Source: a virus (Duplodnaviria; Heunggongvirae; Uroviricota; Caudoviricetes). From it: DNA of 32,946 nucleotides. The notes beneath the pieces were generated by a model, which saw nothing but the letters and a program-made list of their open reading frames with translations, searched no databases and was not told the origin of the DNA. Shown piece after piece: positions 1 through 26,344 of the stretch (within the stretch, counting starts at the first letter, position 1; the number at the start of each line of letters is the position of its first letter). The DNA lies in the IMG/VR virus record IMGVR_UViG_2713897042_000007. One strand, 5' to 3'. The translations under genes and the position numbers were made by a program.

Positions 1-996
1 TTATGGACGCATTATGGACATTCCTGACACCGGGTTAAGAGTCACTGCATCTTGTAAGAAATCCGGTGCAAAGTGTGCGTAGGTCATAGTTTGCTGAATG
101 TTAGAATGACCCAGGATGCGCTGCAATGTGATTATGTTACCTCCATTCATTATAAAATGTGTGGCAAATGTATGCCTCAAAACATGCACTGCCTGTCCGT
201 CAGGTAAATCGGGTTTTACTTCCCTGAGAGCGTTGCGCACTTTGTAGTAACTGGCATTAAAAAGCCTGCCTGAATTTTTGGTCTTGATCCGTTTAATCAG
301 GTCCTGCGAAACGGGAATTGTCCTGCGCTTTCCGTTTTTAGTTTTCATAAACGTAACCATCTGGTTAATGATGTGTTCAGCTTTTAAATTAGACACTTCA
401 CTCCAACGTCCACCAGTAGAAAGGCAGACCAGCGTTGCATTTAATTCATCGCCATCAAGCATGGATAACAGCCGCGTAATCTCTTCACTGGACAAAAAAG
501 CCATTTCCGTAACAGCTTCACGTAACCGCTTAACCTCACGGAACGGGTTGTGAGAGTGGTATTCACCGGCGTCAATTAACTTGGTGAACATCCCGCTCAT
601 TATTGCCAGATGCCGATTTACGCTGGCTGGTTTTAGACCATCGTTCATCATTACAACGCGATAATCAGTTATCGTTTTCTTTGTTAGCTGGTCTGCTCTG
701 GACACTCCCATTTCTGCAAATTTGGCGATTATTGTCGTTAAACGCCCTCGTTCAATATCTCCACGCTCATGTGATTTTCCGTGATATATCCACCATCTGC
801 CTAACAACTCTGTAAGAGTTCGGCGGTCGGCTGGCTTCTCTAACCACTCTTTGTTGTGATAATTAACCAGCACATGACGTTCGAATGCCTGAGCTTCACC
901 TTTAGTTTTAAATTTCCGCCTGATACGTTTTCCATCTGCACCCTGCGGTCTGACGTCCACTTCATAACGACCATCATCGAGCTTTTTAATAGACAT
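1..996 (-). CDS. int: P2-type tyrosine integrase
   Basis: 331-aa ORF ending at the window edge (stop at 1-3). C-terminal tyrosine-recombinase signature (HVLRHTFATH...GHSNIQQTMTYAH). GGAGG RBS upstream of the ATG at 994-996. Sits beside the C repressor as in P2. Confidence 0.93.
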   Translation of the reverse strand: MSIKKLDDGRYEVDVRPQGADGKRIRRKFKTKGEAQAFERHVLVNYHNKEWLEKPADRRTLTELLGRWWIYHGKSHERGDIERGRLTTIIAKFAEMGVSRADQLTKKTITDYRVVMMNDGLKPASVNRHLAIMSGMFTKLIDAGEYHSHNPFREVKRLREAVTEMAFLSSEEITRLLSMLDGDELNATLVCLSTGGRWSEVSNLKAEHIINQMVTFMKTKNGKRRTIPVSQDLIKRIKTKNSGRLFNASYYKVRNALREVKPDLPDGQAVHVLRHTFATHFIMNGGNIITLQRILGHSNIQQTMTYAHFAPDFLQDAVTLNPVSGMSIMRP

Positions 997-4057: not shown

Positions 4058-4329
4058 GTATTCGTATTGAAATTGGCGAACGTTATGTCGTTACCAGTGA
4101 CAGCTTTCAGTTTATTCTCCACGAGAAAAAGAGAGCGGAAAGCGGTAAAAACGCCGGTCAGGAATGGCTGGCAGTGGTTGGTTATTACCCGAAATTAAGC
4201 CAGCTCGTTTCCGGCCTGATGCATCACGATATTCTGACCGGAAGCGCAAAGTCTTTTGCTGATTTAAACGCGCAGGTTGAGCAACTCAGCAGGCGTTGTT
4301 CAGAGGCTTTTGGCTCATATGGCCGTTAA
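4054..4329 (+). CDS. Hypothetical protein upstream of A
   Basis: 91-aa ORF, coupled start (ATGA). Its 3' end overlaps the A start. Confidence 0.5.
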   Translation: MSIRIEIGERYVVTSDSFQFILHEKKRAESGKNAGQEWLAVVGYYPKLSQLVSGLMHHDILTGSAKSFADLNAQVEQLSRRCSEAFGSYGR

Positions 4330-6604
4330 AGCCTCCGGGCGTTTTGTCCCTCCGTCAGCATTTGCCGCAGGCACCGGTGAGACGTTTACCGGTGCTTATG
4401 CATGGAACGCGCCACGCGAGGCCGTCGGGCGCGAAAGACCCCTTACACGTGACGAGATGCGTCAGGTGCAAGGTGCTTTATCCACGATTAACCGCCTGCC
4501 TTACTTTTTGCGCTCGCTGTTTACTTCACGCTATGACTACATCCGGCGCAATAAAAGCCCGGTGCACGGGTTTTATTTCCTCACATCCACTTTTCAGCGT
4601 CGTTTATGGCCGCGCATTGAGCGTGTGAATCAGCGCCATGAAATGAACACCGACGCGTCGTTGCTGTTTCTGGCAGAGCGTGACCATTATGCGCGTCTGC
4701 CGGGGATGAATGATAAGGAGCTGAAAAAGTTTGCCGCCCGTATCTCATCGCAGCTTTTCATGATGTATGAGGAACTCTGCGATGCCTGGGTGGATGCGCA
4801 TGGCGAAAAAGAATCGCTGTTTACGGATGAGGCGCAGGCTCACCTCTATGGTCATGTTGCTGGTGCTGCACGTGCTTTCAATATTTCCCCGCTCTACTGG
4901 AAAAAATACCGTAAAGGACAGATGACCACGAGGCAGGCATATTCTGCCATTGCCCGCCTGTTTAACGATGAGTGGTGGATTAGTCAGCTTAAAGGCCAGC
5001 GTATGCGCTGGCATGAGGCGTTACTGATTGCTGTCGGGGAGGTCAATAAAGACCGTTCACCTTATGCCAGTAAACATGCCATTCGTGATGTGCGTGCACG
5101 CCGCCAGGCAAATCTGGAATTTCTTAAATCGTGTGACCTTGAAAACAGGGAAACCGGCGAACGCATCGACCTTATCAGTAAGGTGATGGGCAGTATTTCT
5201 AATCCTGAAATTCGCCGGATGGAGCTGATGAACACCATTGCCGGTATTGAGCGTTACGCCGCCGCAGAGGGTGATGTGGGGATGTTTATCACGCTTACCG
5301 CGCCGTCAAAGTATCACCCGACACGTCAGGTCGGAAAAGGCGAAAGTAAAACCGTCCAGCTAAATCACGGCTGGAACGATGAGGCATTTAATCCAAAGGA
5401 TGCGCAGCGTTATCTCTGCCATATCTGGAGCCTGATGCGCACGGCATTCAAGGATAATGATTTACAGGTCTACGGTTTGCGTGTCGTCGAGCCACACCAC
5501 GACGGAACGCCGCACTGGCATATGATGCTTTTTTGTAATCCACGCCAGCGTAACCAGATTATCGAAATCATGCGTCGCTATGCGCTCAAAGAGGATGGCG
5601 ACGAAAGAGGAGCCGCGCGAAACCGTTTTCAGGCAAAACATCTTAACCGGGGCGGTGCTGCGGGGTATATCGCAAAATACATCTCAAAAAACATCGATGG
5701 CTATGCACTGGATGGTCAGCTCGATAATGATACCGGCAGGCCGCTGAAAGATACTGCTGCGGCTGTTACCGCATGGGCGTCAACGTGGCGCATACCACAA
5801 TTTAAAACGGTTGGCCTGCCGACAATGGGGGCTTACCGTGAACTACGCAAACTGCCTCGCGGCGTCAGCATTGCTGATGAGTTTGACGAACGCGTCGAGG
5901 CTGCACGCGCCGCCGCAGACAGTGGTGATTTTGCGTTGTATATCAGCGCGCAGGGCGGGGCAAATGTCCCGCGCGATTGTCAGACTGTCAGGGTCGCCCG
6001 TAGCCCGTCGGATGACGTTAACGAGTACGAGGAAGAAGTCGAGAGAGTGGTCGGCATTTACGCGCCGCATCTCGGCGCGCGTCATATTCATATCACCAGA
6101 ACGACGGACTGGCGCATTGTTCCGAAAGTGCCGGTCGTTGAGCCTTTGACTTTAAAAAGCGGCATCGCCGCGCCTCGGAGTCCTGTCAATAACTGTGGAA
6201 AGCTCACCGGTGGTGATACTTCGTTACCGGCTCCCACACCTTCTGAACACGCCGCAGCAGTGCTTAATCTGGTTGATGACGGTGTTATCGAATGGAATGA
6301 CCCGGAGGTCGTGAGGGCGCTCAGGGGCGCATTAAAATACGGGCTGAGAACACCAAATCGTCAGCAGAGAAACGGAAGCCCGTTAAAACCACATGAAATT
6401 GCACCATCGGCCAGACTGACCCGGTCGGAAAGAATGCAAATTACCCGTATCCGCGTTGACCTTGCTCAGAACGGTATCAGGCCGCAGCGATGGGAGCTTG
6501 AGGCGCTGGCGCGTGGCGCGACCGTAAATTATGACGGGAAAAAATTCACGTATCCGGTCGCTGATGAGTGGCCGGGATTCTCAACAGTAATGGCGCGGAT
6601 ATAA
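4319..6604 (+). CDS. A: Rolling-circle replication initiator A (HUH endonuclease)
   Basis: Start at the in-frame ATG 4319 gives 761 aa, the P2 A length (track ORF from 4277 is 775 aa). HUH motif TPHWHMMLF and paired tyrosines GYIAKYISK. Confidence 0.92.
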   Translation: MAVKASGRFVPPSAFAAGTGETFTGAYAWNAPREAVGRERPLTRDEMRQVQGALSTINRLPYFLRSLFTSRYDYIRRNKSPVHGFYFLTSTFQRRLWPRIERVNQRHEMNTDASLLFLAERDHYARLPGMNDKELKKFAARISSQLFMMYEELCDAWVDAHGEKESLFTDEAQAHLYGHVAGAARAFNISPLYWKKYRKGQMTTRQAYSAIARLFNDEWWISQLKGQRMRWHEALLIAVGEVNKDRSPYASKHAIRDVRARRQANLEFLKSCDLENRETGERIDLISKVMGSISNPEIRRMELMNTIAGIERYAAAEGDVGMFITLTAPSKYHPTRQVGKGESKTVQLNHGWNDEAFNPKDAQRYLCHIWSLMRTAFKDNDLQVYGLRVVEPHHDGTPHWHMMLFCNPRQRNQIIEIMRRYALKEDGDERGAARNRFQAKHLNRGGAAGYIAKYISKNIDGYALDGQLDNDTGRPLKDTAAAVTAWASTWRIPQFKTVGLPTMGAYRELRKLPRGVSIADEFDERVEAARAAADSGDFALYISAQGGANVPRDCQTVRVARSPSDDVNEYEEEVERVVGIYAPHLGARHIHITRTTDWRIVPKVPVVEPLTLKSGIAAPRSPVNNCGKLTGGDTSLPAPTPSEHAAAVLNLVDDGVIEWNDPEVVRALRGALKYGLRTPNRQQRNGSPLKPHEIAPSARLTRSERMQITRIRVDLAQNGIRPQRWELEALARGATVNYDGKKFTYPVADEWPGFSTVMARI

Positions 6605-6816
6605 TGACAAAGATTCACAAAGTAAAGCTGCACGCAAGATATTTCAACCTTGTGCTGGAGGGAAAAGAAACGCACAGAATTTAGGGGGATAGCCGTTATC
6701 ATGTGTATGAAGCACTTGAAATGTATCTGCATCACTTGGGAGTGTGTCAACGGGGAATTTCCATCTATGTGATTTTTTGAGAGCAATGCAGTGAAGATAA
6801 AGATACTTATTATAAA

Positions 6817-6936
6817 TCAATGTGATAGATGGTGCCTCGCAAACGTAAATGATAGTTTTGAAGCTTCAGGGCTGATGTCGTTCATAAGACTGTGTTTACG
6901 CTATCATTTATGATAAAAATAATTAATTTTTATCAT
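6817..6936. promoter_or_regulatory. Putative promoter/operator of the cargo operon
   Basis: AT-rich region upstream of the 6961 start. Palindrome ATGATAAAAA-N7-TTTTTATCAT at 6910-6936. Related TGATAG/ATGATA copies at 6822-6830, 6846-6854 and, inverted, 6901-6909. Confidence 0.4.
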
Positions 6937-6960
6937 AAAGATTCAACAGAGGATATGTTG

Positions 6961-8466
6961 ATGAATCAACTAAAATCAATGAATATCAATAAGTTACTTT
7001 TGGATGTTGATAACCCTCGTTTCCCGACGTCAGCAGAAAATCAGCGTGATGCTATTGCCAAGATGCTTGACTTGCAGTACGACCGCATTTATCGCTTGGC
7101 TAAAGATATTGCTTCGAAAGGTTTAGATCCGTCTGAAAACATATTAGTTTATCCTAGTGAAGAGGAATCTGGCTTTTTCGTCGTTGCTGAAGGTAATCGT
7201 CGAGTTACAGCCCTTAAACTTTTACACTCTCCTAGACTTGCACCAACAGAAAAAGCACGGAAAGCTTTTGAAAAACTTAAGATTACTCAGCTTAAAGATA
7301 TTAATGTTATAGATAACTGCGTTCTTTTTGACGATGATGAATATGAGCATTGGGTCAATTTAAAGCATACTGGTCAAAATGCTGGAGTTGGAAGAGTTGA
7401 ATGGACTGCAACAGAAAAAGCACGACATCTGGCTAGGATGGGTAAGCAGTCATTTGGTAATCAAATACTTACATTTATAGAGTTCAATACTGATTTATAT
7501 AAAGAGATAATTGCTAAAAAAAGACTTTTAAAAATCACAAACATCACGCGTCTTTTTGGTGATTTAAAGGTGAGGGATTATTTTAATTTAAAAAGCATTA
7601 ATGGAGTTCTATACTCATATCAGCCTTATGAACGTTTTTGTGCACAATTAAAAAATATTTTAGATGTAATGATTGAAGAGGATGATAAAGGTAAGGCTTG
7701 TTTTACTGTTAATAGGATTCGTAGCCAAGATGACAGGGTTACATTTATTATTGAACAAAAAATAAAACCTTCAGAATCTCTTTTAGATAAGCCGTGGAGT
7801 TTACTAGAGCCTAAATCTTTTCTTACAGAGAAAAAACATGATTCTATTGACAAAAATGATGCATCTGTGAGTGTAAAGAAAGTAGGTCTTTCAGAAGGTG
7901 ATGCCTTAAAGAATACAGGTGTGGATAAACAGGAAGATGATTATTCTAGACATGTAGGCACAGAAGAGAGTAAATCTAAAGTTTCGGGTACGGAACAGAA
8001 TAAAAACAAGGGAAAAACTCCTCCTAAAGTAGATCGTAATGTGTTGGTGCCATCTTATGTGAAATTTAATTTTAGAGGGCATAAGAAATGCTCTAGAATA
8101 TTTAATGAGCTTAAGTCGCATCTGACATTTGATAACACCCCTAATGCTATCTCAATATTGTTGAGAATATTTATAGATCTCTCTGTAAGCACTTTTGTTG
8201 AAGAAAACAAGTTACAATTTAAGGAACCACATAGAACTCCAGGGCTTCATGATAAGGTTAAAATGTGTGCTAATTTCCTTCGGGAAAATAAAAAGATGAC
8301 GGGGAGTCAATGTACGGCTGTAATAACTTTCTCGAGCCAAATAACTAAACATGATGGTTCATTGCAGCAGTATGTACATAACCCACACTTAATTCCCTCA
8401 AAAGAGGCTGTCAACACTGAGTGGGATAACTTTGAGTTGTTATTAAGCCTTATTTGGAGTGAGTGA
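6961..8466 (+). CDS. ParB/Srx-like N-terminal domain protein with uncharacterised C-terminal region (cargo)
   Basis: About 501 aa from the ATG at 6961 (GAGGA 7 nt upstream; in-frame alternatives at 6955 and 6892). N-terminus has ParB-type motifs (DVDNPRF; VVAEGNRRVTALKLL, the GxRR box). Central K/E/S-rich low-complexity linker. Visibly AT-rich against flanking phage genes. Confidence 0.7.
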   Translation: MNQLKSMNINKLLLDVDNPRFPTSAENQRDAIAKMLDLQYDRIYRLAKDIASKGLDPSENILVYPSEEESGFFVVAEGNRRVTALKLLHSPRLAPTEKARKAFEKLKITQLKDINVIDNCVLFDDDEYEHWVNLKHTGQNAGVGRVEWTATEKARHLARMGKQSFGNQILTFIEFNTDLYKEIIAKKRLLKITNITRLFGDLKVRDYFNLKSINGVLYSYQPYERFCAQLKNILDVMIEEDDKGKACFTVNRIRSQDDRVTFIIEQKIKPSESLLDKPWSLLEPKSFLTEKKHDSIDKNDASVSVKKVGLSEGDALKNTGVDKQEDDYSRHVGTEESKSKVSGTEQNKNKGKTPPKVDRNVLVPSYVKFNFRGHKKCSRIFNELKSHLTFDNTPNAISILLRIFIDLSVSTFVEENKLQFKEPHRTPGLHDKVKMCANFLRENKKMTGSQCTAVITFSSQITKHDGSLQQYVHNPHLIPSKEAVNTEWDNFELLLSLIWSE

Positions 8467-8535
8467 GATTTGTCTACATCTGGACATGGATGTCCAGAAA
8501 CTGATAAACTACAAAATCAGGAATGAGAGGGATTT

Positions 8536-9420
8536 ATGAAATTTTATACTCCATTAAGATACCCCGGCGGGAAAGGTAAGTTATCTTACTTTTTAAAAGA
8601 TGTTATTGAAAAAAACTCGTTGAATGATGGAGCATATGCAGAACCTTACGCTGGTGGTGCAGGGGTGGCTTTAGAATTATTATTGGAAGAGTATGTCCGT
8701 AAAATCTATATAAATGATGCAGATTTTGCTGTTTATTCTTTTTGGTCATCTGTTGTTAGTGATACTGATGAGCTTTGCCGACTTATTAGCCGAGCAAAGA
8801 TAGATATGGATGAATGGTCTTTTCATCGCTATGTTATTTCGAATCCTTCTGAGTTTACTAAGCTTGAGGTTGGCTTTGCTGCGTTTTTCTTAAATAGAAC
8901 AAATCGTTCAGGTATTCTCAAGGCGGGGGTTATAGGCGGGAAATCACAAAATGGAAAATGGAAAATGGATGTTCGCTTTAACAGGGCGGATTTAATTTCA
9001 AGAATTGAGAAGATAGCAAATTATAATCAAAGAATAGTAGTAACTAATCTGGATGCTTTGGATTTTCTTGATGCCTTGAATTTTATGGATAATATGGGAA
9101 AGGTGGATAAAAATAAAATTCTTTTGTATTTGGATCCTCCTTACTATATTAAAGGGCAAGGGCTTTACAGGAATTTTTATGAGCATGATGACCATGTATT
9201 GGTTATGAAGAAACTCACAGAAATTAATTTCCCAAATTGGCTTGTTTCTTATGATAACGCTAAGGAAATTAAAGATATTTATAATGGATTTCCGCAAGTT
9301 GAGTATTCATTGCAATATACAGCGCATCTCAAAAAATCTGGAGAGGAAGTGATGATTTTTTCTCCTGAAATAATTATTCCTAATACCCTGAAAGGGGTCT
9401 CAATTCCAACTTGCGCCTGA
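8536..9420 (+). CDS. Dam-family (D12 class) N6-adenine DNA methyltransferase (cargo)
   Basis: 294 aa. N-terminal RYPGGKGKL, AdoMet-binding EPYAGGAG and catalytic DPPY align to the same positions as in E. coli Dam. RBS GAGAGGG upstream. AT-rich, co-oriented with the gene before it. Confidence 0.85.
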   Translation: MKFYTPLRYPGGKGKLSYFLKDVIEKNSLNDGAYAEPYAGGAGVALELLLEEYVRKIYINDADFAVYSFWSSVVSDTDELCRLISRAKIDMDEWSFHRYVISNPSEFTKLEVGFAAFFLNRTNRSGILKAGVIGGKSQNGKWKMDVRFNRADLISRIEKIANYNQRIVVTNLDALDFLDALNFMDNMGKVDKNKILLYLDPPYYIKGQGLYRNFYEHDDHVLVMKKLTEINFPNWLVSYDNAKEIKDIYNGFPQVEYSLQYTAHLKKSGEEVMIFSPEIIIPNTLKGVSIPTCA

Positions 9421-9567
9421 TTTTACTTATTTTTTGTCAGTAAGTAATTAGTTTGGTGCATTTATTTGCATTCATTTTTAAATGCCAGTTCTGGTATCTA
9501 ACATCAGTGCTGGCGCATTCTAACCATTACTGCTGCACTGCATTTAAAGCCCTGCATGAAGCGGGCG

Positions 9568-9586
9568 GGCGAGGCGGGGAAAGCAC
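9568..9586. other. cos cohesive-end site
   Basis: GGCGAGGCGGGGAAAGCAC matches the 19-nt P2/186 cohesive end as I recall it. Lies in the non-coding gap just before the portal/terminase genes, as in P2, with G/T-rich repeats to its right. Confidence 0.75.
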
Positions 9587-9728
9587 TGCGCGCTGGCGGT
9601 GGTGCTGATTTTATTTTTTCAGCGTCTCAGCGCGTCGTAATGGCGTTTAGATTGTGCGCCGGGGCGCTGGTGTGTCTGCGGGCTGTTTTGTGCGGTGGTG
9701 AGTGTGTGAGGGCGTGATGACGGGGTGT

Positions 9729-9750
9729 AAAAAAGCCGCCCGCAGGCGGC
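9729..9750 (-). terminator. Rho-independent terminator after Q
   Basis: On the minus strand: GCCGCC-tgcg-GGCGGC hairpin followed by TTTTTT, immediately after the Q stop codon. Confidence 0.65.
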
Positions 9751-9755
9751 GATGT

Positions 9756-10790
9756 TCAGCCGTTGTCTGTGTCCAGTGAGTAGTTTTTAAAGCGGATGAC
9801 CTCCTGACCGAGCCAGCCGTTTATTTCCCGAATCCTGTCCTGTAGCGGGATAAGCTCATTGCGGACAAAGACCTTTGCCACTTTCTCAATATCACCCAGC
9901 GACCCGACGTTCTCCGGCTTGCCGCCCATCAACTGAAAGGGGATGCGGTGTGCGTCCAGCAGGTCAGCGGCGCTGGCTTTTTTGATATTAAAAAAATCGT
10001 CCTTCGTTGCCACTTCACTGAGCGGGATAATTTTAATGCCGTCAGCTTTCCCCTGCGGGGCATAGAGAAACAGATTTTTAAAGTTGTTGCGGCCTTTCGA
10101 CTTCACCATGTTTTCGCGAAGCATTTCGATATCGTTGCGATCCTGCACGGCATCGGTGACGTACATGATGTATCCGGCATGTGCGCCGTTTTCGTAATAC
10201 TTGCGGCGGAACAACGTGGCCGACTCATTCAGCCAGGCAGAGTTAAGGGCGCTGAGGTATTCCGGCAGGCCGTACAGCTCCTGATTAATATCCGGCTCCA
10301 GCAGGTGAAACACGGAACCGGGCGTGAAAGGTGTCGGCTCGTTGAAGGACGGCACCCACCAGTAAACATCCTCTTCCACACCACGGCGGGTATATTTTGC
10401 CGGTGAGGTTTCCAGTCTGATGACCTTACCGGTGGTGCTGTAACGCTTTTCCAGAAACGCATTACCGAACACCAGAAAATCCAGCACAAAGCGGCTGAAA
10501 TCCTGCTGGGACAGCCACGGGTGCGGGATAAACGTTGAAGCCAGAATATTGCGTTTGACGTAAATCGGTGAGCTGTGATGCACGGCAGCACGCAGGCTTT
10601 TTGCCAGACCGGTAAAGCTGATTGGTGGCTCATACCATCTGCCGTTACTGATGCATTCGACGTAATCCAGAATGTCACGGCGGTCGAGTACCGGCACCGG
10701 CTCACCAAAGGTGAATGCCTCCATTTTCGGAGCGCTGGCGGTGATTGTTTTTTCCGCAGGTTGCGGTGTTTTCCCTTTTTTCTTGCTCAT
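9756..10790 (-). CDS. Q: Portal protein
   Basis: 344 aa, the P2 Q length. First gene of the leftward Q-P operon next to cos. Confidence 0.93.
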   Translation of the reverse strand: MSKKKGKTPQPAEKTITASAPKMEAFTFGEPVPVLDRRDILDYVECISNGRWYEPPISFTGLAKSLRAAVHHSSPIYVKRNILASTFIPHPWLSQQDFSRFVLDFLVFGNAFLEKRYSTTGKVIRLETSPAKYTRRGVEEDVYWWVPSFNEPTPFTPGSVFHLLEPDINQELYGLPEYLSALNSAWLNESATLFRRKYYENGAHAGYIMYVTDAVQDRNDIEMLRENMVKSKGRNNFKNLFLYAPQGKADGIKIIPLSEVATKDDFFNIKKASAADLLDAHRIPFQLMGGKPENVGSLGDIEKVAKVFVRNELIPLQDRIREINGWLGQEVIRFKNYSLDTDNG

Positions 10791-12562
10791 CAGTAAAACT
10801 CCAGAATGGTGGATGTCAGCGGGGTGCTGATACCGGCGGTGAGTGGCTCATTTAACAGGGCGTGCATGGTCGCCCAGGCGAGGTCGGCGTGGCTGGCTTC
10901 CTCGCTGCGACTGGCCTCATAGGTGGCGCTGCGTCCGCTGCTGGTCATGGTCTTGCGGATAGCCATAAACGAGCTGGTGATGTCGGTGGCGCTGACGTCA
11001 TATTCCAGACAGCCACGGCGGATAACGTCTTTGGCCTTGAGCACCATTGCGGTTTTCATTTCCGGCGTGTAGCGGATATCGCGCGCGGCGGGATAGAACG
11101 AGCGCACGAGCTGGAACACGCCGACACCGAGGCCGGTGGCATCAATTCCGATGTATTCGACGTTGTATTTTTCGGTGAGTTTGCGGATGGATTCAGCCTG
11201 AGTGGCAAAGTCCATGCCTTTCCACTGGTGACGCTCAAGTATTCTGAATTTGCCACCGGCCACCACCGGCGGTGCCAGCACCACGCATCCGGCACTGTCG
11301 CCACGGTGTGACGGGTCGTAACCAATCCAGACCGGGCGGGAGCCGAACGGATTGGCGGCAAACGGCGCATAGTCTTCCCATTCTTCCAGCGTGTCGACCA
11401 TGCAGCGTTGCAGCTCCTCGAACGGGAACACCGATGCCTTGTCGTCAACAAATTCACACATGAACAGGTTTTTAAAATCGTCGGCGCTGTTTTCGCGTTT
11501 GAGCTGCTCAATGTCGAACAGCGTGCAGCCGCCTTTCAGGGCGTCCTCAATGGTGACAATCTGTCGCCACTGGCCGTCCGCACAGAGAAGACCTCCGGCA
11601 AGGGCGTTATGACTGACGTCGATTTCCACGCGTTCGGCGGCGCTGGCGCGTCCCCGGTTGAACAGTTCACCCGACCAGAACGGGTAGGCGTCGTGCGCCA
11701 GCGTGGACGGGGTGGAGAAATAGGTCGAGCGCAGGTGACTCTGTGAGGCCATACCTGATGCCACCTTACGCAGTACCTGAAAATTCGGGATCCAGAAAAT
11801 CTCGTCGACGTACAGGTCGCCGTTATGGCTCTGTGCGGTGTTGGAGTTGGTGCCGAGAAAAATCAGTTTTGCGCCGTTATTGCCCAGGACAATCGGGTCA
11901 CCGGTAAGGTCAACGTCAACCAGACGGGCAAAGGCGATGATGTATTCGCGGAACACATACGCCTGCGTTTTACTGGCCGACAGAAAAATCTGGTTATGAC
12001 CGGTTTTCAGGGCGCGCAGCAGCGCCTCGCGGGAAAAATAAAACGTTGCGCCAATCTGGCGGGATTTCAGGATATCGCGGATGCGGTGCTCAAGCCCGGC
12101 GCGATACCAGTGCAACTGATAGTCGAAAGACTGCTCAAAGAAAATCTGCTCCAGCTTTTCGATGGCCTCGTCACTGAAAAAATTCTTTTTCGGTTTGCGA
12201 CGCCCGCCTTTGTTGCGGTTAGCGACGTTCGGATTAAGGTCTGCTTCGTTGCCGGTCTGACTGTAGCGGTTGACCCGTGCCAGTCGTTCAATCTGGCGTC
12301 CGAGCAGGTCAATTTCCTTGAAGTCACCGCCGGTTTTCTGCGGTTTGATGATGAGCTGGGTCAGCCGCGCTTCCAGACTCATTTCGACACGGCTGATGGG
12401 GGCAACGCTGTCCCAGCCGTCGCGCTGTTTCCAGCTCTGCACCGTCGGGCGTTTCATCTGCAACATGGCGGCAATCTGCGGCACGGAAAACCCCTGCCAG
12501 TACAGCAGCGCCGCCTGACGACGCGGGTCGTGTAAAAGAGTGGTGTCTGTGGTGATGGTCAT
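10790..12562 (-). CDS. P: Terminase large (ATPase) subunit
   Basis: Start at the internal Met (MTITTDTT...) gives 590 aa, the P2 P length (track ORF is 600 aa). Stop overlaps the Q start by 1 nt. Confidence 0.92.
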   Translation of the reverse strand: MTITTDTTLLHDPRRQAALLYWQGFSVPQIAAMLQMKRPTVQSWKQRDGWDSVAPISRVEMSLEARLTQLIIKPQKTGGDFKEIDLLGRQIERLARVNRYSQTGNEADLNPNVANRNKGGRRKPKKNFFSDEAIEKLEQIFFEQSFDYQLHWYRAGLEHRIRDILKSRQIGATFYFSREALLRALKTGHNQIFLSASKTQAYVFREYIIAFARLVDVDLTGDPIVLGNNGAKLIFLGTNSNTAQSHNGDLYVDEIFWIPNFQVLRKVASGMASQSHLRSTYFSTPSTLAHDAYPFWSGELFNRGRASAAERVEIDVSHNALAGGLLCADGQWRQIVTIEDALKGGCTLFDIEQLKRENSADDFKNLFMCEFVDDKASVFPFEELQRCMVDTLEEWEDYAPFAANPFGSRPVWIGYDPSHRGDSAGCVVLAPPVVAGGKFRILERHQWKGMDFATQAESIRKLTEKYNVEYIGIDATGLGVGVFQLVRSFYPAARDIRYTPEMKTAMVLKAKDVIRRGCLEYDVSATDITSSFMAIRKTMTSSGRSATYEASRSEEASHADLAWATMHALLNEPLTAGISTPLTSTILEFY

Positions 12563-12735
12563 GAATACCTCGCCGTGATGAATACACGGCAAGGCTACTG
12601 AGTCGCGCCCCGCGATTCGCTAATGTGCTGTTGTGTCAGTGATAAACCATCCGGGACTGATGGCGGAGGATGCGCATCGTCGGGAAACTGATGCCGACAT
12701 GTGACTCCTCTAATCACTATTCAGGACTCCTGACA

Positions 12736-24173: not shown

Positions 24174-24701
24174 ATGCAGCATTTAAAAAATATTACTGCG
24201 GGTAATCCAAAAACTGTTGCCCAATATCAACTGACAAAAAATTTTGATGTTATCTGGTTATGGTCCGAAGAGGGAAAAAACTGGTATGAGGAAGTAAGTA
24301 ATTTTCAGGAAGACACGATAAAGATTGTTTACGACGAGAATAATATAATTGTCGGCATCACCAGAGATGCTTCAACGCTTAACCCTGAAGGTTTTAGCGT
24401 TGTCGAGGTTCCTGATATTACCGCCAACCGACGTGCTGATGACTCAGGTAAATGGATGTTTAAGGATGGTGCTGTGATTAAGCGGATTTATACGGCAGAC
24501 GAACAGCTGCAACTGGCGGAATTACAGAAGTCAGCTTTGCTTTCCGAAGCTGAAACTATCATTCAGCCACTGGAACGCTCTGTCAGACTGAATATGGCAA
24601 CAGATGAGGAGCGTAGCCGACTGGAAGCATGGGAACGCTACAGTGTTCTGGTCAGCCGTGTGGATCCTGCAAATCCTGAATGGCCGGAAATGCCGCAATA
24701 A
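24174..24701 (+). CDS. G: Tail fiber assembly chaperone G
   Basis: 175 aa, the P2 G length, immediately after H. Confidence 0.88.
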
Positions 24702-24735
24702 GTTGTATGATCTCTGGAGTGAGCTAACGTATCTA

Positions 24736-24890
24736 TAGCACAGAGTAAAGCCTAATCTGACAGTCTGCTCTGTGCTAGGAGCGGACTGACCTGCTCCCCG
24801 ATGATTAATACACAGCTATGCTAGTAATGTCCGTAGATCGCTGTGTGTTGCATCCATCGGTTGAACTCACAGTCCAAACCAGACTGTCAG
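24736..24890. repeat. Inverted-repeat-rich non-coding leader
   Basis: 10-bp perfect stem TAGCACAGAG (24736-24745) / CTCTGTGCTA (24768-24777). 11-bp inverted pair CTGACAGTCTG (24757-24767) / CAGACTGTCAG (24880-24890). No ORF in the track covers this region. Confidence 0.6.
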
Positions 24891-25122
24891 CTTTGATTAG
24901 ATTCTACCTACTCAACCTGTCAGATAAGGTCTGAGCTAATACATCTAATATATGGCTTTGTGCAGGGGACGGCTATCGCGAACGTTAGGCCAGGTATCTG
25001 AATACGCACAGTTCACTTGGTTGTACTTCTTGCACTGATCTGCTATCCCGCACAGCTATTTATAGGTAATCTTCAGTGTATAATCTGCCAACTTATGGAA
25101 GCTTGTACAACAGGAGAAATAT

Positions 25123-25965
25123 ATGAAAAAAGAATTGTTTGGACGTTGCCCGTTTGATCTTGACGAAGATGTAAAAAAAATAGCCGCGATAAATAAATAT
25201 ATCCATGCAAAATTTGAGGAGCATAAAAATAAAATAGACAACCTAAAGGGTGTGGAACAAAAATTGATGGTCTTACAGTACTTTAATGTACTGAATGAAC
25301 TTAGTAATCAGGCTATCTCTTCTTTGAATATAGGAGCCTTTTCAGCATCGGAAGTATTAGCTAGGGTTATAATAGAACAGGCTGCCAATCAATTTTATAT
25401 AGCAATAGATGATGGCGAAAATGCACAAGCGTTACTCAAGGCTAGTAAGAAATTAGTTCATAGTAATGGAAAACGGTGGCTGGAGTGTTTAAAATCCAAA
25501 GGAATGACTAATCCAGCAGCAAATGAAAGGATTCGCATGGGAAAAGAACTAACTGATCTATTTAATAGATTGTGGCCAAATACACCTGAATATCCAGGAA
25601 CCAGAAAACTTTTTGAATTAATTGGCTGGGAAACACACTATCATGCCCATTACGTTCCCCTTTGTGATTCAATACATACATTCTCTGATGATATGGTAAA
25701 TATAGTATCTCTATATAATGCAATCCAAAGTGATGAAACTACTGCTATCGAATTCATTCTTGCAGTTAAACAAGAAAATAAACGGCTGGCAATTTATAAT
25801 TTTGTAATTGCTACGGCCCTTCGGTGTGAGGCCTTAGTAAATGTATTTAACTCTTTAGGTTATCAGGATATTATAACAGAAATGACACCAACAATAGATA
25901 CAGTCAACCAGACTATAATTCGATATGATGATTTTGATCATTCCAGAATTGATGATTGTCAATAA
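25123..25965 (+). CDS. Hypothetical cargo protein (position of P2 Z/fun)
   Basis: 280-aa ORF with AGGAGA RBS and a TATAAT-like element about 40 bp upstream. Strongly AT-rich. No catalytic motif I can recognise. Confidence 0.7.
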   Translation: MKKELFGRCPFDLDEDVKKIAAINKYIHAKFEEHKNKIDNLKGVEQKLMVLQYFNVLNELSNQAISSLNIGAFSASEVLARVIIEQAANQFYIAIDDGENAQALLKASKKLVHSNGKRWLECLKSKGMTNPAANERIRMGKELTDLFNRLWPNTPEYPGTRKLFELIGWETHYHAHYVPLCDSIHTFSDDMVNIVSLYNAIQSDETTAIEFILAVKQENKRLAIYNFVIATALRCEALVNVFNSLGYQDIITEMTPTIDTVNQTIIRYDDFDHSRIDDCQ

Positions 25966-26071
25966 TTAATTGACAGAATACGTACATGCGCAACAACTAG
26001 TGATAGTTGACTTATTTTCGCTCTTGAGAGACAACCATACTCAAATCTCCCACATTGCAGGAGATTTGAAT

Positions 26072-26179
26072 ATGAAAACATCACCGTGGAATAAAGACCG
26101 TACCATCGGTCAAAAAAGGCCACTTCAGATATCTCATATCTGGGGGATCCGGATTAGACTTGAGTTGGAAGGTAAATAA
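26072..26179 (+). CDS. Possible small basic peptide
   Basis: 35-aa ORF (MKTSPWNKDRTIGQKRPLQISHIWGIRIRLELEGK) with AGGAGA 8 nt upstream. A weak GGGCA/TGCCC hairpin plus T-rich tract follows. Confidence 0.3.
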   Translation: MKTSPWNKDRTIGQKRPLQISHIWGIRIRLELEGK

Positions 26180-26344
26180 ATTGTCAGTCGGAAAATAAGT
26201 GAGTACAAATTAGGGCAGGTGAGCGAATTGCCCGCCTTTTCTTTACCGGTGGTTGTGCTGTCGATTAGCCAACCGGGACAAATAGCCTGACATCTCCGGC
26301 ACAACTGAAAATACCACTCACCCATTAACCACGGAGTTAAACGG

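Follow-up and report, generated by a model that had tools for sequence, protein, structure and literature searches.

Palindromic operators at restriction-like promoters have a precedent in the dnd system of Salmonella enterica, in which the regulator DndB binds two TACG-N10-CGTA palindromes at the dnd promoter, as established by electrophoretic mobility shift assay and footprinting (PMC4507180). A further operator-binding repressor of the ParB superfamily is KorB of plasmid RK2 (PMC11790492). In type II restriction-modification systems, the operators of C proteins are paired palindromic sites that lie over the promoter of a nuclease gene and delay or limit production of the toxic enzyme. Fur-repressed promoters also occur at prophage-borne accessory genes, stx1 being one example. 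The DNA described here is a P2-like (Peduovirus) prophage of 32,946 bp (IMG/VR record IMGVR_UViG_2713897042_000007, hereafter the window), which carries the anti-phage gene pair PD-lambda-5 as cargo. Directly upstream of this pair lies a perfect 33-bp palindrome accompanied by an array of GATA motifs.

PD-lambda-5 is already known and is poorly understood. Its two genes were recognized in the window as adjacent matches to the PADLOC profiles PD-Lambda-5_A (E 5e-168) and PD-Lambda-5_B (E 1.5e-121). The system was discovered in ECOR7 and described as ‘ParB/HEPN, methyltransferase’; when placed in a low-copy vector lacking a promoter, along with 272 bp of upstream DNA, it was active in MG1655, required an mrr deletion host, and gave unusually broad protection against nearly all of the phages tested (Vassallo et al. 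2022, PMC9519451). A survey of 5426 complete E. coli genomes revealed no variant of gene A other than that of the window, which was present in 22 genomes and always at least 99.5% identical. Accordingly, the 272-bp ‘native promoter’ fragment of the ECOR7 clone very probably corresponds to positions 6689-6960 of the window. The repeats to which the original prediction had drawn attention lie within this fragment, on its only conserved candidate -10 box.

The likeness to dnd consists of a restriction-modification-like defence operon that encodes a ParB-superfamily protein and has palindromic motifs at its promoter. By contrast, DndB is a dedicated regulator, whereas the ParB fold of PD-lambda-5 is fused to a HEPN effector. 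The motif also differs, being ATGATA/GATA and not TACG-N10-CGTA, and is not conserved in orthologous modules. The arrangement of paired palindromic sites over the promoter of a toxic gene recalls the C-protein operators, but neither a C gene nor any other small helix-turn-helix (HTH) open reading frame (ORF) is present in the PD-lambda-5 cargo, and no C-box of the GACT...AGTC type was seen on reading of the sequence.

The N-termini of homologues and the RefSeq annotation of an identical prophage place the start of gene A at ATG 6961, which is preceded by AGAGGA at 6948-6953. GTG 6892 is the start of a mechanical ORF only, and it is this ORF, not the true gene, that the palindrome overlaps. The palindrome therefore occupies positions -54 to -22 relative to the start codon and is upstream of the coding sequence, which corrects the initial view that the element overlaps the 5' end of the cargo operon.

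The original prediction described a 27-bp palindrome with 10-bp arms. Both arms (ATGATAAAAA at 6910-6919 and TTTTTATCAT at 6927-6936) are present at these positions, as are the accompanying motif copies TGATAG (6823-6828, + strand), ATGATAG (6849-6855, + strand), and CTATCAT (6901-6907, - strand). The palindrome is real but larger than first described, extending to 33 bp with perfect 14-nt arms. Among perfect inverted repeats with spacers of ≤12 nt, no other in the whole window is as long, the next longest having arms of 10 nt. An arm of 14 nt was reached in none of 5000 dinucleotide shuffles, either of positions 6686-6960 (maximum of 12) or of the AT-rich core at 6880-6960 (maximum of 11). 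As single-stranded DNA, the palindrome has a folding energy of -10.7 kcal/mol (z -6.1). Each arm holds the unit TTTAT(G/C)ATAAA, the two copies of which (6907-6917 and 6929-6939) are 22 bp apart. Because this unit is its own reverse complement except for the centre base, the palindrome is at once a direct and an inverted repeat.

The same region contains another perfect inverted repeat (TAAATGATAG/CTATCATTTA), whose 10-nt arms are 45 nt apart and whose ATGATA core is shared with the palindrome. All four matches of the window to WWWATGATAR, a pattern drawn up after the copies had been seen, fall within 6846-6939, that is, in 94 bp of 33 kb. Outside the palindrome, ATGATA/TATCAT occurs three times compared with 0.40 expected (P 0.004), and TGATAG/CTATCA three times compared with 0.21 expected (P 0.0014). 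The true repeated core is GATA, with 11 copies of GATA/TATC in 6686-6960 against an expectation of 3.6 (0 of 3000 shuffles); for GATAR, the corresponding values are 8 and 1.7 (P 0.0003). The density of GATA in the upstream region is 40 per kb, compared with 9-13 per kb elsewhere in the cargo and prophage. A tandem repeat search returned none. That the repeats are not due to chance is borne out by the shuffle tests of both the palindrome and the GATA counts.

More than 100 loci encoding homologues of A were collected for comparison (designated by L numbers). The left arm of the palindrome contains the hexamer TATGAT, which fits TATAAT at five of six positions, among them the second (A) and the sixth (T), and lies 47-52 bp upstream of ATG 6961. 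Of 16 relatives carried by different mobile elements, 14 have TATGRT at -50 to -56; alignment columns T59-A65 are invariant or near-invariant, and TATGATA-A-A is the most conserved stretch of the shared block. When scored with a sigma-70 matrix of approximate consensus frequencies, TTAAC(A/G)-N19-TATGAT ranked as the first or second candidate in L009, L119, L116, L038, L025, and L013 (TTAACC in L013). Since TATGRT and its spacing from TTAAC(A/G) are kept in relatives, the left arm is likely to be the -10 box of the family.

In the window itself, the hexamer 19 bp from TATGAT is ATAAGA, which on our reading matches the -35 consensus at three of six positions. TTTACG is separated from TATGAT by 8 bp and from AATAAT, in the centre of the palindrome, by 17 bp, and the latter pair is the top-ranked sigma-70 candidate of the window. 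An 11-bp deletion in the window promoter is favoured by the alignment with L009, whereas those with L119, L117, and L038 prefer a mostly collinear arrangement with no 11-bp gap. From the three -10-like hexamers, we estimate that transcription would start at ∼6919-6943, within or just beyond the palindrome. The element is inferred to be the promoter region of the PD-lambda-5 operon, for which the activity of the ECOR7 clone, driven by its 272-bp fragment, gives indirect support.

Relatives in which A is 60-78% identical reside in P2-like phages (L115, L119, and L123), a plasmid-like contig with ccdAB and ardC (L116), an integrase-flanked island (L117), and other phages. These relatives always retain the methylase gene, and upstream of A they share alignable sequence with the window only over about -75 to -1. 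Where A is 64-78% identical, the left arm with the -10 box is retained and the symmetry is absent, the right arm reading TTTTGACCAT, TTTTAACAAT, TTTTGACGTC, and similar. The palindrome is consequently not a conserved feature of PD-lambda-5 modules. In 13-14 of 16 sequences, two positions of the arms do not pair, and the perfect symmetry is thus derived in the E. coli lineage. The GATA array is likewise specific to this lineage: GATA occurs eight times at -200 to -1 in the window compared with 2.8 expected (P 0.004), whereas the sum over 16 relatives is 38 compared with 30.7 expected. The upstream DNA was found only in this same prophage, in 22 E. coli genomes, with no match in plasmids. A search for the palindrome in viral contigs gave 29 matches, of which seven were this prophage and the remainder unrelated and mostly AT-rich (∼10 being giant-virus contigs), consistent with chance. 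No other copies of the element were found that would suit a mobile element or a single-stranded DNA origin.

The reading that we tentatively favour, and regard as possible while short of probable, is that the promoter is overlaid by a lineage-specific operator array bound by a repressor, for which a host factor is a better candidate than the ParB-like protein. The left arm would represent the family-conserved -10 box of the PD-lambda-5 operon promoter, to which the E. coli lineage would have added a second copy of TTTAT(G/C)ATAAA 22 bp downstream, two helical turns away. The resulting 33-bp palindrome would straddle the -10 box and the predicted transcription start, and the 275-bp upstream region would have gained 11 GATA-core motifs, including the second inverted repeat together with a Fur-box-like site. 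A repressor bound to both units as a dimer or oligomer could then occlude the -10 box and start site and keep expression of the toxic effector low (the HEPN domain of A is probably toxic), with the distal GATA sites providing added cooperative binding. If a host protein does read such a lineage-specific operator, an imported defence module would have been wired into host regulation, and a single 33-bp site would serve as an experimental handle.

Several observations weigh against a lineage-specific operator. The repeated unit is itself -10-like, self-complementary, and AT-rich, such that a pair of promoter-like hexamers might pass for an operator. Given that identity among all carriers is at least 97%, the perfect palindrome may simply mirror recent mutation; natural operators are seldom perfect across 14 bp. 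No binding protein was identified among the domains of A and B and the small cargo ORFs examined. With regard to Fur, the palindrome matches the consensus at only 13 of 19 positions, a score of at least 13 being reached at 13 places in the window; its Fur-like 7-mers are, on our reading, 11 bp apart instead of 1; and strict NATWAT hexamers are not enriched. In their distal, non-homologous upstream DNA, 12 independent relatives show a ∼2-fold enrichment of ATGAT/ATCAT (14 compared with 6.4; 0 of 300 shuffles), which weakly hints at a binder encoded by the module. Finally, strong palindromes centred at -50 to -25 were observed in 6 of 95 non-redundant A homologues (0.38 in shuffles), compared with 3 of 122 neighbouring genes. 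A family-wide operator was rejected on this last comparison, the frequency of palindromes being above that in shuffles yet no higher than at neighbouring genes.

A direct repeat of TTTAT(G/C)ATAAA is automatically an inverted repeat, and the palindrome may accordingly be a by-product of two -10-like hexamers (TATGAT and TATCAT) in a self-complementary unit, with the region acting as a promoter only. Its origin would be recent, through either a local duplication or a template switch that ‘corrected’ an ancestral quasi-palindrome; the symmetry would not be read by any dedicated protein, and any effects would come from competing overlapping RNA polymerase sites or from general AT-richness. The relatives do hold a quasi-palindrome, TTATGATAAAAA ... 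TTTTGACCATAA, in which 10 of 12 positions match by our count, and the two perfecting changes in the window (G to T and C to T) also generate TATCAT. Divergence from the nearest relatives, again by our count, amounts to ∼10 of 22 positions in the centre and right arm compared with 1 of 32 in the adjoining 5' untranslated region, a clustering that suggests a local rewrite. The close identity of the carriers leaves no time for decay, so that a recent event would still look perfect, and the search for a regulator gave none. We consider this explanation unlikely on balance, but a strong rival that comes close to the operator reading. It leaves unexplained the second perfect 10-nt inverted repeat and the threefold excess of GATA over 275 bp, and template switching would not yield the dispersed distal copies. 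Should the palindrome prove to be a mutational by-product, the region would still be useful as the promoter of PD-lambda-5.

The ParB/Srx-HEPN protein or the methylase might bind the ATGATA/GATA sites to achieve autoregulation or, in a variant of this idea, the sites might contain the target of the methylase, making the promoter dependent on self-methylation. Dam-family methylases recognise GAT-containing sites, which counts in favour of such a scheme. The TTATGATAA unit is also conserved in relatives, where the distal enrichment of ATGAT noted above would fit, and the need for an mrr deletion host implies that B is an active methylase. Operator-binding repressors of the ParB superfamily exist in DndB (PMC4507180) and KorB (PMC11790492). 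Against this, the GATA array and the symmetry are absent where A is 64-78% identical. The middle domain of A gave no HTH or winged HTH match, and a Pfam search of A gave no match. Of the 294 residues of B, 9-255 fall in the Pfam methylase domain, so that neither an N-terminal HTH nor any extra N-terminal DNA-binding domain can be accommodated. A palindrome between genes A and B is of unrelated sequence, and it is not obvious that one protein reads both control regions. Taken together, autoregulation by the module seems distinctly unlikely.

Only short ORFs without regulator features were found in the cargo at 6640-6965 and 9400-9760. The element bears some resemblance to the hix/gix sites of invertases and to the Arc operator of phage P22, but neither an invertase nor a small ribbon-helix-helix gene was seen in the ORF list of the window. 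The operator of the P2 immunity repressor was rejected as a source of the sites, because the direct repeats of the C-cox intergenic region, CTCTAAATCG and CTCTAGATCG, are on our reading unrelated to ATGATA.

The ParB fold raises the further question of a parS-like site onto which the protein would load as a clamp dependent on nucleoside triphosphate. Residues E77, G78, N79, R80, and R81 of A are invariant in 28 homologues, within an N-domain that gave ParB/Srx fold matches, and this motif may be equivalent to the Box II arginine patch (GxxR) of ParB. However, no HTH was found next to the ParB fold; the best matches in 6686-6960 were 10 of 16 positions to one parS (TGTTACACGTGAAACA) and 8 of 13 to one OB sequence (TTTAGCCGCTAAA), both off the palindrome; and the site is not conserved among orthologues. 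KorB, by contrast, has an HTH and a conserved 13-bp OB site. A parS-like loading site, as entertained in the original prediction, is thus very improbable.

Homologous modules in other hosts lack the array, and no repressor-type DNA-binding domain is recognisable in A or B; a host protein is therefore a likelier binder than the ParB-like protein. Of the three candidates put forward at the outset, the host regulator fits the lineage-specific pattern best, and the ParB-like protein, with no HTH and with its supposed sites absent from orthologues, is poorly supported. The proposal of an operator array is likewise reasonable, the palindrome and the GATA array being placed where an operator might be expected.

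Fur is one concrete host candidate, and H-NS a generic one. Nowhere else in the 33-kb window is the Fur consensus matched as well as by GATAAAGATACTTATTATA (P 0.0015 compared with shuffles of 6686-6960), a sequence that lies within the GATA array and overlaps a weak sigma-70 candidate, TTGAGA-N19-GATACT. The region resembles Fur-repressed promoters of this kind in that GATAAT-like hexamers form an AT-rich array where a prophage accessory gene has its promoter, with this site matching at 15 of 19 positions, but differs from them in the half-site spacing of the palindrome, which is wrong for Fur, and in the lack of NATWAT enrichment. The Fur-box-like match could mean iron control of the defence module. 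P2-hotspot defence genes are usually presumed to be constitutively expressed. A new regulatory logic for a P2-hotspot defence system would follow if the GATA array were read by the module's own proteins, as a methylase target sensed by the ParB/Srx-HEPN protein such that the promoter reports self-methylation and releases or restrains the toxic HEPN effector, or if the system belonged to the host Fur (iron) regulon; that either of these holds we regard as improbable.

An RNA element was also considered, in which the palindrome forms a hairpin in the 5' untranslated region or a terminator keeping P2 early transcription out of the cargo. Transcription from farther upstream, for which TTGAGA-N19-GATACT is one candidate promoter, would allow the palindrome to fold. 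Its stem, however, consists of A-U pairs only, with no U-run behind it; RNAalifold gave 0 conserved leader pairs in 16 relatives; the leader of the window folded no better than shuffles (z 0.18); and an Rfam search gave no match. The possibility is largely refuted and hardly credible. An intrinsic terminator was rejected on the all A-T stem and on a scan that returned no terminator at 6900-6945. RNAalifold and the shuffles also led to rejection of a hairpin that would hide the ribosome-binding site by the pairings TCAACA/TGTTGA and GATTCAACA/TGATGAATC, for which one compensatory-looking change was present, in L025.

Table 1. Features of the PD-lambda-5 upstream region, cargo, and surrounding prophage, in window positions
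Feature	Position	Strand	Basis or remark
Lineage-specific upstream region, from end of P2 homology to start codon, with 11 GATA/TATC	6686-6960	+	Homology end, motif counts
TTATCAT copy, missing from the original prediction	6696-6702	-	Motif scan
Weak upstream sigma-70 candidate, TTGAGA (6777-6782), 19 nt, GATACT (6802-6807)	6777-6807	+	Consensus match
Fur-box-like GATAAAGATACTTATTATA, 15/19 positions of consensus GATAATGATAATCATTATC	6796-6814	+	Consensus match only
TGATAG copy	6823-6828	+	Motif scan
TAAATGATAG, distal arm of second perfect 10-nt inverted repeat	6846-6855	+	Inverted-repeat search, WWWATGATAR match
Alternative sigma-70 candidate, TTTACG (6895-6900), 17 nt, AATAAT (6918-6923), -10 in palindrome centre	6895-6923	+	Consensus match only, top-ranked in window
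CTATCATTTA, proximal arm of second inverted repeat, 4-nt overlap with palindrome left arm	6901-6910	-	Inverted-repeat search, WWWATGATAR match
Perfect 33-bp palindrome, arms TTTATGATAAAAAT (6907-6920) and ATTTTTATCATAAA (6926-6939), 5-nt centre	6907-6939		Inverted-repeat search
TATGAT, candidate family-conserved -10 hexamer in left arm of palindrome	6909-6914	+	TATGRT position in relatives, sigma-70 ranking
PD-lambda-5 gene A: ParB/Srx N-domain, unassigned middle domain, disordered linker, C-terminal HEPN	6961-8466	+	PADLOC profile, fold matches
A-B intergenic palindrome TCTGGACAT-GG-ATGTCCAGA, perfect	8479-8498		Within intergenic 8467-8535, over candidate internal methylase promoter
PD-lambda-5 gene B: D12-class N6-adenine DNA methyltransferase (Dam-family, N6-methyladenine), 294 aa	8536-9420	+	PADLOC, Pfam
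Integrase ORF	1-996	-	Prophage backbone
Replication gene A (gpA)	4277-6604	+	P2-like backbone
Portal and terminase genes	9756-12592	-	P2-like backbone

The palindrome between genes A and B probably serves as an attenuator and/or as an operator covering an internal promoter of the methylase gene. Its position is kept in all relatives, and its outer arm positions co-vary, for example as ATAGACAT/ATGTCTAT in L011 and L039; 84.7% of cells were paired, and the covariation score was reached in 2 of 500 shuffles. In the relatives, the palindrome is followed by TTTTGATATACT, which can be read as a T-run joined to an extended -10 (TGnTATACT); the palindrome itself contains a -35-like TGGACA. An unrelated palindrome with 12-nt arms occupies the equivalent site in L014.

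Unrelated strong palindromes are centred 31-45 bp upstream of the start codons of A homologues in L076 (∼1735-1764, 15-nt arms, TTAAATAATATTGTTAACAATATTATTTAA), L063 (∼2946-2966), and L086 (∼432-453). These homologues are distant (26-28% identity), and their palindromes are individually striking. L028, another distant homologue, also has a strong promoter-proximal palindrome.

The cargo is inserted at the A/orf91-Q hotspot of P2, and cargo content varies among P2-like phages. Homology to P2, Wphi, and L-413C, which spans gpA and the start of a truncated orf91, ends at ∼6685. The orf91 gene of P2 (DUF3850/ASCH-like; window 6604-6685) is cut after ∼27 codons, where the cargo starts, and the insertion replaces the remainder of orf91 and the tin/old region of P2. 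The G+C content of the insert is 34-39%, compared with 54-57% in the phage DNA on either side. A second low-GC island (35-42% G+C; 24700-26300) follows the tail-fibre genes, in the place of Z/fun in P2. An ORF of 280 aa within it (25123-25965) matched no PADLOC profile and may represent a cargo or defence gene of unclassified type.
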